Below are positions 7,682 through 9,542 of a stretch of 64,000 nucleotides of DNA, piece after piece. The DNA is taken from assembly GCA_036172245.1 (NCBI GenBank), contig JAYWIR010000038.1, positions 1,674,001 through 1,738,000 of the forward strand, in the 5' to 3' direction. Within the stretch, counting starts at the first letter, position 1. The number at the start of each line of letters is the position of its first letter. The translations under genes were made by a program, and so were the position numbers. Below the pieces are notes generated by a model that was given only the letters and a program-made list of their open reading frames with translations, made no database searches and had not been told where the DNA came from. Origin of the DNA: Raillietiella orientalis. Taxonomy: Eukaryota.

Positions 7682-7840
7682 TCACACGAAGTACATTGTG
7701 TCGGGCACCTTCTCCGGAAGCCTGTCGGCCGTTTCCGGCGACACCGGACCCGCGGTGCTGCTGTCGCTGCTGCTGTCCGCCGAGTCCACCATGTGGTAGC
7801 GCGCACGGAACGCGGCCAGGTGGGCGTAGTATGTGGGAGC
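7682..7840 (-). pseudogene. Argonaute (AGO clade) PIWI C-terminus, 3' piece
   Basis: APTYYAHLAAFRARYHM...VPDTMYFV* (TGA at 7682-7684), a typical Argonaute C-terminus. AATAAA lies on the - strand at ~7636-7641. Confidence 0.9.
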
Positions 7841-7848
7841 CCGGATGG

Positions 7849-9335
7849 GCAACGTAAAATACCTGGGGATACGCATCGGCGAAGAAACACCTTCCTTGGA
7901 GTCGCAGCAATGGTCCAACATCTTGGCCAAGCTGCGCGAAGAAGCCAGCCAATACACCGGAAGATCATTCTCGCAGAAGGACAAGGCAAACCTCTGGAAC
8001 GGGGTGATGGCGCCGAAGTTTCTCTTCGCAGCGTCCTTTTTAACGTTTCCCCCGAAGACGGCAAAAGACCTGTCCGCAATCCAGAGGAACCTTGTCTGGA
8101 GCGGGAAACGACCCACGACAAAACTGCGGTAACTGTGTCGCCCGCGGATGGAAGGAGGAACCGGCATGCGCACTGTCTCAATTGCCGTGAAACTCCAGGA
8201 CCTGAAACACCTGTTCCGAATGGTCAGCGCATGGGACGAGTGGCCTTTCGCGTTCCACCGTGCCTTCGCAAGACTGGTGCACGGAACCGACGGCCTCGCG
8301 TCAGCCGTGACGCTCACCGCGGGCGACTGGGTCCAAGTGGACCCTACGTGGCCCCGAATCCAGAGTCTAATATGGACATTAAAACTGCGAGTGGTACCCC
8401 GAAGTAAAGAAGTCTGGAACAGGGAACTCACCAAGGTGATTCCCCAGTTCATCAACGTGCCATGGGACACTGAAGCGTGGATCAGGAAGACCCAAAAGAT
8501 CACCATGCAAGATACGGAGAGACTGGCGAATAGCGTAGTTATACACGCCTGCCGAGTCCTCACATACAAACGTCAGCTGGAGGGGAGGATAACCCATAAA
8601 ACCCGGAAACTCTGGCAAGATCAGGGCTCCTAATGGTCCAAGGTAAACCTCCTGAGCAATAACCTTCTTAGTCTCCAGGAAACAATACTGTCAGAGGCGA
8701 TGCTGAAGATCAAGTCCAGGTTAGGCAATCCCGGCGTCGACGCGAACGCAATCGGGATGGTCCTTTGGAGATCCTCGCTACCACCGGACATACAGGACTG
8801 CCTCCTGATGTTTTACTACGGAGGCATACTGTGTGGCACGAGGCTTCAACACTGGACCGGAAATCCCGACGACGACCGATGCCCAGGATGTGGATCAATC
8901 GAGGATGACCTTCACATCTACATCTGCCACACCCTCGCGAAAAACTGGAAGACCGTGAAGAGGGCGGTGAGGATGGAAGAAATATCGACGCTCGAGATCC
9001 TGAGAGGACTCTTCGAGGGCGAAGACGGAGTACCCCGTTACAATCCCACCGTAAGAGTGATCGTGGCCTCCTTCATGAGAAGTATCCTCATAAGGATAAA
9101 ACTAGGCGAAAGTGAATCGTGTGGTGCCCTGGAAATCCTTTGCGGACTCTTGAAAAGGGAAATAAACATTCGAGCATGTGGGAGAGTTCCCTCGTGGACC
9201 TTCCAACATTGCCTGAGAATAGTGCAGTGTGCGGCCAGGACGATGTTGAGATGCACCCGATTGGACCGCAGCATTAATTATACGTATCTTTTGTCTGTAA
9301 ATAAATTCACCCCACCGCACGTCGGACTGGGGAAA
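7849..9335 (+). mobile_element. 5'-truncated LINE copy 2 (end of RT plus C-terminal zinc finger), inserted in the Argonaute fragment
   Basis: Starts at VKYLGIRIG and stays in one frame with two nonsense stops (8130, 8631). Has a CPGCGSIEDDLHIYIC Zn motif and a 3' AATAAA, stem-loop and AAAA. Flanked by AGCCCGGATGG (7838-7848) and AGCCGGGATGG (9336-9346). Confidence 0.9.
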
Positions 9336-9542
9336 AGCCGGGATGGACACCGACCGCGTGCACCGGGCGTACACGTGGCACATGTAATACGTCAGTTTCT
9401 GGATCGCATCCGACGAAAAGTCGTTGTCGTCGTACAGCACGAAGTATTGCGTGGGGCGGCTCGTTCCTTGGATGCCCTGGTGACTACACAGAAAGTAGTC
9501 GAACTGGAGAGGGTGCACGATCTCGTTGTCCACCACGGTCCC
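9336..9542 (-). pseudogene. Argonaute (AGO clade) PIWI domain fragment, 5' piece
   Basis: [69 protein letters not shown], a clear Argonaute PIWI signature. It continues exactly into the 7840 piece once the LINE is removed. Confidence 0.92.

Follow-up and report, generated by a model that had tools for sequence, protein, structure and literature searches.

Results

Two Argonaute pieces and the element between them

The subject of this analysis is a 64-kb window (64,000 nucleotides of Raillietiella orientalis contig JAYWIR010000038.1, assembly GCA_036172245.1, positions 1,674,001 to 1,738,000 of the forward strand) in which the carboxy-terminal coding sequence of an Argonaute protein is split by a long interspersed nuclear element (LINE). 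All coordinates given are positions in this window. The two Argonaute pieces are on the minus strand, piece 1 at 9336..9545 and piece 2 at 7682..7840, and the insert, designated LINE-B, is on the plus strand at 7849..9335.

Piece 1 is the conserved core of the PIWI domain and was identified by Pfam, by structures in the Protein Data Bank (PDB), by an AGO profile, and by tblastn. Its minus strand reading frame runs from 9629 to 9336 through 98 codons without a stop and ends in ...CTRSVSIPA, where the final codon encodes the alanine that aligns with A801 of human AGO2. The translation of 9336–9629 matches positions 217–285 of the 302-position Pfam Piwi profile (PF02171) with E = 3.5e-29, and piece 1 matches residues 732–801 of the human AGO2 structure (PDB 4ola) with E = 4e-29. 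Piece 2 encodes 52 residues, APTYYAH...MYFV, followed by a TGA stop codon (7684–7682). The frame from 7840 to 7685, APTYYAHLAAFRARYH...MYFV, holds 52–53 codons and is also stop-free. Read from inside the duplicated target sequence described below, piece 2 matches residues 799–834 of the 859-residue 4ola chain (E = 8e-7). The two alignments share residues 799–801 because the target sequence was duplicated. Consecutive residues of one structure are aligned and their overlap is exactly the duplication, so the two pieces are one contiguous Argonaute PIWI carboxy terminus. The preliminary description of this locus had proposed both this continuity and the absence of stops, and the alignments bear it out.

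The AGO profile gave the same boundaries. It has 907 positions, was built from 65 full-length homologs, and was run with filters off. Positions 786–854 match 9542–9336 (E = 1e-45) and positions 852–907 match 7846–7685 (E = 6.5e-10); thus, piece 2 reaches the final position of the profile. In tblastn searches, all nine full-length AGO queries match 9542–9336. The chains of human AGO1, AGO2, AGO3, and AGO4 score alike on piece 1 (E from 4e-29 to 6e-28), and PIWI-clade chains score weaker (E from 1e-13 to 4e-7). By these scores the fragment is assigned to the AGO clade and not to the PIWI clade, and a finer assignment is unjustified. It had been suggested that GTVVD and the terminal MYFV mark a divergent AGO2-like copy. 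This does not hold: GTVVD is the consensus of 89 AGO homologs, MYF is their usual ending, and AGO1–4 score alike.

Comparison with databases did not bring a close relative. The best identity of a database protein to the Argonaute piece is 75% over the 69-residue core, in a sponge protein. A scan of metagenome contigs recovered 83 relatives, of which 80 were kept. The best of these is 70% identical over the same core, and a shorter match (L079) is 74% identical over 50 residues. On these sequence identities the metagenome relatives are neither the parent nor an orthologue of the Argonaute piece. The missing close match has no bearing on the existence of a parent because the host lineage is poorly sampled in databases. 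Twelve of the 80 metagenome loci were inspected for a conserved intron position; most have no interruption in the region, a result that is uninformative on the host lineage. In a FastTree analysis of 149 columns and 90 sequences the Argonaute piece has the longest terminal branch (0.97 compared to a median of 0.08). Its nearest neighbors are at patristic distances of at least 1.6, and the tree is too poorly resolved around it for a subfamily name.

LINE-B is flanked by a target-site duplication

An 11-nucleotide (nt) direct repeat bounds LINE-B. The copy on the 5' side of the element, AGCCCGGATGG, is at 7838..7848 and the copy on the 3' side, AGCCGGGATGG, is at 9336..9346, with 10 of the 11 bases identical. 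In the Argonaute frame the 5' copy reads I-R-A, not I-P-A, and the A at 9336 may instead be part of the A-run of the element. The LINE 3' terminus and the Argonaute alignment set the junctions independently, and the repeat sits exactly on them. Across the window, 62,491 start positions were compared at this offset of 1498 nt, and three of them reach 10 of 11 (7838 and two that overlap, 34708/9). Of 2,000,000 random pairs, 53 reach 10/11. A target-site duplication is present at both ends of LINE-B, as had been described (11 bp with one mismatch), and removal of 7849–9346 restores the empty site, which confirms that the junctions had been placed accurately.

LINE-B is 1,487 nt long; its limits derive from homology, the 3' terminus, and the duplication. 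It has one plus strand frame with two TAA stops (8130–8132 and 8631–8633) and a 3' terminus that reads ...TGGGGAAA(A). The mismatch in the duplication and the two in-frame TAA codons indicate that the insertion is not fresh. An exhaustive phmmer search of 1.84 billion representative proteins identified 86 that match the LINE-B translation at E ≤ 1e-3. Residues 2–147 of LINE-B align with residues ~757–900 of proteins of 1,150–1,390 amino acids at 23–37% identity. Seventeen of the homologs were scanned for domains: RVT_1 was found in 17/17, an N-terminal Exo_endo_phos domain in 12, and zf-RVT in 11. RVT_1 in the scanned homologs ends at ~760–780, directly before the LINE-B alignment. Farther along, LINE-B residues 303–396 align with residues 1590–1686 of one homolog (P0131) and overlap its zf-RVT match (1570–1655). 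LINE-B spans the last residues of the reverse transcriptase domain to the C terminus because its alignment starts where RVT_1 of the homologs ends. The start corresponds to residue ~754 of the second open reading frame (ORF2), and the endonuclease domain is not in this copy owing to the 5' truncation. Homology of LINE-B to the reverse transcriptase ORF2 is indirect, via these homologs and a colinear second element. A word-indexed protein search restricted to longer proteins, with LINE-B read through both stops, returned no matches.

The second element, LINE-A, is a longer, decayed member of the same group at 2031..5344 on the plus strand. It was defined by RVT_1, tblastn, colinearity, and the 3' terminus, and it has several frame breaks. 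Its RVT_1 match (E = 9.1e-7) scores 29.2 bits, 0.4 below the Pfam cut-off of 29.6. The tblastn searches with LINE ORF2 homologs place residues ~341–786 at 2586–3883, so LINE-A starts at ORF2 residue ~341 or earlier. The segment 3865–5343 is colinear with LINE-B at ~33% amino acid identity. The two elements have a 38-nt 3' terminus in common (5307–5344 in LINE-A) that is 76% identical, and both end in ...GGGGAAA(A). A family-specific, A-ending 3' terminus is thus combined with a variable 5' truncation. The domains of the homologs, the colinear second element, and the common 3' terminus together with the duplication identify LINE-B, at the level of sequence comparison, as a 5'-truncated LINE with an apurinic/apyrimidinic endonuclease (APE)-type endonuclease and an L1/Tx1-like domain architecture. 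These data agree with the earlier view of a 5'-truncated LINE in the orientation opposite to Argonaute. A possible flanking repeat of LINE-A, AAATCTTCAAA (1840–1850) and AAATCTTCATA (5343–5353), matches at 10/11, and about two such pairs are expected by chance. The downstream flanks of the two copies differ, TCTTCATAGG for one and GCCGGGATGG for the other. The possibility raised earlier that the element has Tx1-type site specificity is therefore without support, with the limit that the comparison is weak (n = 2).

The window contains the last 122 positions of an Argonaute

The two strands of the window together give 1,879 stop-to-stop ORFs with 15 or more residues, and the AGO profile was compared with every one. 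Nothing was found among these ORFs beyond the two pieces, and the next E-value is 4.1. Searches of the window by tblastn with the nine full-length AGOs at E ≤ 20 gave no further credible match. Profile coverage is limited to the last 122 of 907 positions (786–907), ~13% of the protein, and the other 87% is missing from the window because the profile matches only the two pieces. The N, L1, PAZ, L2, and MID domains and the first ~70% of PIWI were not found in the ORFs of the window. In human AGO2 the catalytic DEDH tetrad is D597, E637, D669, and H807. Of these four the fragment keeps the His alone, which pairs with residue 807 of 4ola; the window lacks the stretches that would carry the D, E, and D.

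The Argonaute frame is interrupted by the 1,487-nt insert after the codon equivalent to A801. The break precedes by six residues the His that pairs with AGO2 residue 807, the catalytic member of the DEDH tetrad. The position just before the YYAH His given in the preliminary description is correct. Beyond the break, the Argonaute frame continues for 77 unrelated codons through the antisense LINE tail (9105–9335, minus strand) and then reaches a stop. Read-through would be predicted to replace the last 51 residues with these 77 codons. A chimeric ORF of 255 codons (9869–9105) could be called by a gene finder because the Argonaute frame runs on into the LINE.

The two edges of the fragment were compared with 89 AGO homologs, taking residues 29–116 of the piece as the core. 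For the core, median identity to the homologs is 0.64, compared to 0.65 among the homologs themselves. The first 28 residues have a median identity of 0.18, compared to 0.56 among the homologs. AGO similarity begins abruptly at ~9545. At near-invariant columns, defined as conserved in at least 95% of the 89 homologs, the piece agrees at 31/37. The QKRHH motif, which is unrecognizable in the piece, accounts for four of the six mismatches. A frameshifted QKRHH was sought in the other frames of 9545–9640 and none was found. The segment in question, 9546..9625 on the minus strand, is an in-frame, stop-free lead of ~27 codons that is not recognizably Argonaute. The AGO profile alignment stops short of it, whereas pairwise BLAST alignments to two homologs (P0014 and P0078) reach into it without gaps. 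The lead could be either a degenerate exon start or nonhomologous sequence.

Upstream of the lead is a T-rich tract (T12, CTTTCTT, and (GTT)4) followed by CCAAGCAG, at 9626..9672 on the minus strand and A-rich on the plus strand. The tract and its CAAGCAG are a plausible candidate for the polypyrimidine tract and 3' splice acceptor of a terminal exon, and a second AG at ~9588 could be an alternative acceptor. At the other end of the fragment, an AATAAA is located at 7636..7641 on the minus strand (TTTATT on the plus strand), 40 nt (7681–7642) after the stop codon. Poly(A) was not found after this signal: on the plus strand from 5300 to 11000, T runs never reach a length of six and no 20-mer is T-rich. 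A duplication flanking the Argonaute fragment, as sought in a test for a processed retrocopy, was not seen, and there are no convincing inverted or tandem repeats bounding the piece. The missing A-run after AATAAA and the upstream T-rich tract with AG argue against a processed retrocopy and for a fragment that arose at the DNA level.

Neighboring genes and sequencing coverage

The first exons of a U1 snRNP 70K (U1-70K) gene are at 13233..14023 on the plus strand, with U1snRNP70_N matches at 13233–13418 (E = 4.4e-18) and 13440–13565 (E = 6.1e-5). This gene is divergent from the Argonaute piece, 3.6 kb away, and lies in a stretch of 34–40% guanine plus cytosine (GC). On the higher-coordinate side of the piece there are 1.3 kb of GC-rich sequence without matches, then an AT-rich stretch, and then U1-70K. 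The AT-rich stretch contains an inverted repeat at 11459–11513 (25 nt, 96% complementary, 5-nt spacer). A teneurin gene occupies 22180–35140 on the minus strand, the strand of the Argonaute piece, and has GBD, EGF, FN-plug, TTR, NHL, YD-shell, and Tox-GHH domains. It has long exons, ends in the Tox-GHH domain, and is ~66% GC. The best database matches are dipteran teneurin-m proteins at 33–34% identity, which puts the host in an animal lineage without near kin in the protein database. Pfam searches of ORFs of at least 110 residues between 35 and 64 kb gave no match, and Rfam had no matches in the whole window. The window is a GC mosaic, with 34% at 12–14 kb compared to 62–66% at 24–28 kb and 56–64 kb and a sharp switch at ~10.9 kb.

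A public DNA run (X1; share 0.08) was compared with 4000–13000 of the window. The comparison gave 51 short contigs, three of them at least 99% alike; one 151-nt contig inside LINE-B and two at 12.2–12.6 kb are identical to the window. None of the X1 contigs spans 7848/7849 or 9335/9336, and 9719–10922 is without cover. Other X1 contigs differ by 3–12% from parts of LINE-B, which indicates that the LINE-B family has further copies. The summed contig depth is 44.9 in the bin 9418–9718, compared to ~3 for the identical contigs and 0–1 in adjacent bins. This spike may come from the A/T-rich microsatellite at 9632–9672 or from multi-copy sequence.

Discussion

The fragment is probably an orphan relic of a terminal exon, or a partial duplicate made at the DNA level, of an AGO-clade gene, and it was separately hit by a 5'-truncated LINE. 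It would have come from a partial duplication at the 3' end of an Argonaute gene or from a resident gene that lost its other parts. What stayed would be the last ~122 of ~907 residues with the stop codon, the AATAAA, and probably the splice acceptor of the terminal exon. The fragment stands alone between a LINE and the unrelated U1-70K gene and is likely nonfunctional. An APE-type retrotransposon without long terminal repeats (non-LTR) would separately have entered the coding sequence in the antisense orientation via target-primed reverse transcription. Nicks staggered by 11 nt would have given the duplication, and reverse transcription that stopped or switched early would have kept nothing but the final 1.49 kb of the element. 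The insert breaks the frame past the A801 equivalent, six residues ahead of the catalytic His. Either lesion may have come first, since the core has no measurable decay either way. The proposal that a retrotransposon hit an RNA-silencing effector paralog presumes a gene at this locus and is not sustained. Profile positions 786–907 alone are present, with unrelated genes upstream, so the LINE is not the sole lesion and need not have caused the inactivation.

Several findings weigh against this interpretation. The core is as conserved as that of functional AGOs (0.64 compared to 0.65), keeps 31 of 37 near-invariant columns, and has no stops, which means either that constraint was lost too recently to detect or that the piece was in a working gene until recently. 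The search covers 54 kb upstream of the piece, and Argonaute exons could be located farther away. The absence of X1 contigs across the LINE junctions and at 9.7–10.9 kb makes an assembly join possible. On the side of the element, direct Pfam scans of the LINE-B ORFs detected nothing relevant, even at E ≤ 5, and the best database E-value for LINE-B is only 1e-7.

In the first alternative a complete Argonaute gene exists, the pieces form its genuine last exon, and its remaining exons are more than 54 kb upstream, outside the window; the LINE would then be a knock-out or a segregating null allele of a real RNA-silencing gene, in line with the preliminary description. The fully conserved, stop-free core fits this explanation, as do the plausible polypyrimidine tract with its AG before the piece and the AATAAA past the stop. 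However, no further Argonaute exon is found within 54 kb upstream, and a single intron would have to nest both U1-70K and teneurin, one of them on the same strand. The QKRHH motif expected at the start of the stretch is also absent. We regard this alternative as unlikely. If the remaining gene does lie upstream, the locus would be a natural AGO-clade null allele produced by an element that RNA silencing targets, a case of moderate interest.

Two further explanations have, in our estimate, a smaller and equal chance. One is that a transposon brought the Argonaute piece, either by 3' transduction from LINE-A or through capture by another element, in a unit that ends at the A-rich tract (9632–9662). 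Both LINEs and this tract are in the plus strand orientation, antisense to Argonaute, the Argonaute similarity stops within ~90 nt of the tract, and the piece is a terminal part of a gene only. In contrast, a flanking duplication of such a unit was not found: comparison of 9656–9700 with 1–5400 gave two 9-mers and one 12-mer with one mismatch, all inside LINE-A. Both elements of the family end in a short ...TGGGGAAAA and not in a long A tail, there are no terminal inverted repeats around the piece, and LINE-A may have its own repeat (1840–1850/5343–5353), though this is within chance expectation. The other is an assembly artifact, a false join near 9.6–10.9 kb or a collapsed or chimeric contig. 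X1 provides no cover at 9719–10922 and no contig across either LINE junction, and the GC content changes sharply at ~10.9 kb. A proper target-site duplication and a residue-exact fit of the Argonaute pieces are unlike a misassembly, and the three X1 contigs that are identical to the window, one in the LINE and two at 12.2–12.6 kb, also argue against it.

It is very improbable that an Argonaute mRNA gave rise here to a 5'-truncated processed retrocopy that the LINE later hit. The presence of only the coding 3' end and the abrupt start of similarity would suit such a copy, whereas no minus strand poly(A) follows the AATAAA in 5300–7700, no flanking duplication is seen, and the T-rich tract and AG just upstream look like the end of an intron. 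Also very improbable is the idea that the Argonaute piece is plus strand LINE cargo, in which LINE-A read-through to the A-rich tract at 9632–9662 would yield RNA antisense to the 3' end of Argonaute mRNA and the retrotransposon would in effect carry bait directed at the very silencing machinery by which it is restrained.

Read as an orphan terminal-exon relic or partial duplicate, the locus is an ordinary finding. The junction between the transposable element and the coding sequence is real and was correctly described, and the "gene" is a 122-residue fragment. The consequence for annotation is that a gene finder or a census of the family could count the locus as an extra or a "disrupted" Argonaute paralogue. 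Counting it as the loss of a silencing gene to a LINE would be a mistake. What the locus does offer is an insertion with clean borders that can be dated, from a highly divergent L1/Tx1-like family and in an animal lineage with poor database representation. Loss or decay of single Argonaute paralogues is a known outcome of turnover in the family, and Argonaute pseudogenes are reportedly present in other animals, for example in wild strains of C. elegans; these are not known to involve a LINE in the last exon. A literature search brought up no report of a LINE inserted into an Argonaute terminal exon.

The fragment and its insert can each be compared with a known system. The fragment resembles AGO-clade Argonautes such as human AGO2 (4ola) in its C-terminal alignment, which extends through the last profile position. 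It differs from them in lacking the N, PAZ, and MID domains, the part of PIWI with three of the four catalytic residues, and QKRHH. The target site of L1 is T-rich, and the LINE-B target (...GGG/AGCCCGG...) differs from it. Compared with APE-type non-LTR retrotransposons, which combine Exo_endo_phos, RVT_1, and zf-RVT, LINE-B is unlike in its strong divergence and in a tail of AAA(A) in place of a long poly(A). It is like them in the alignment that follows RVT_1, the 5' truncation, the 11-nt duplication, and the A-ending terminus.

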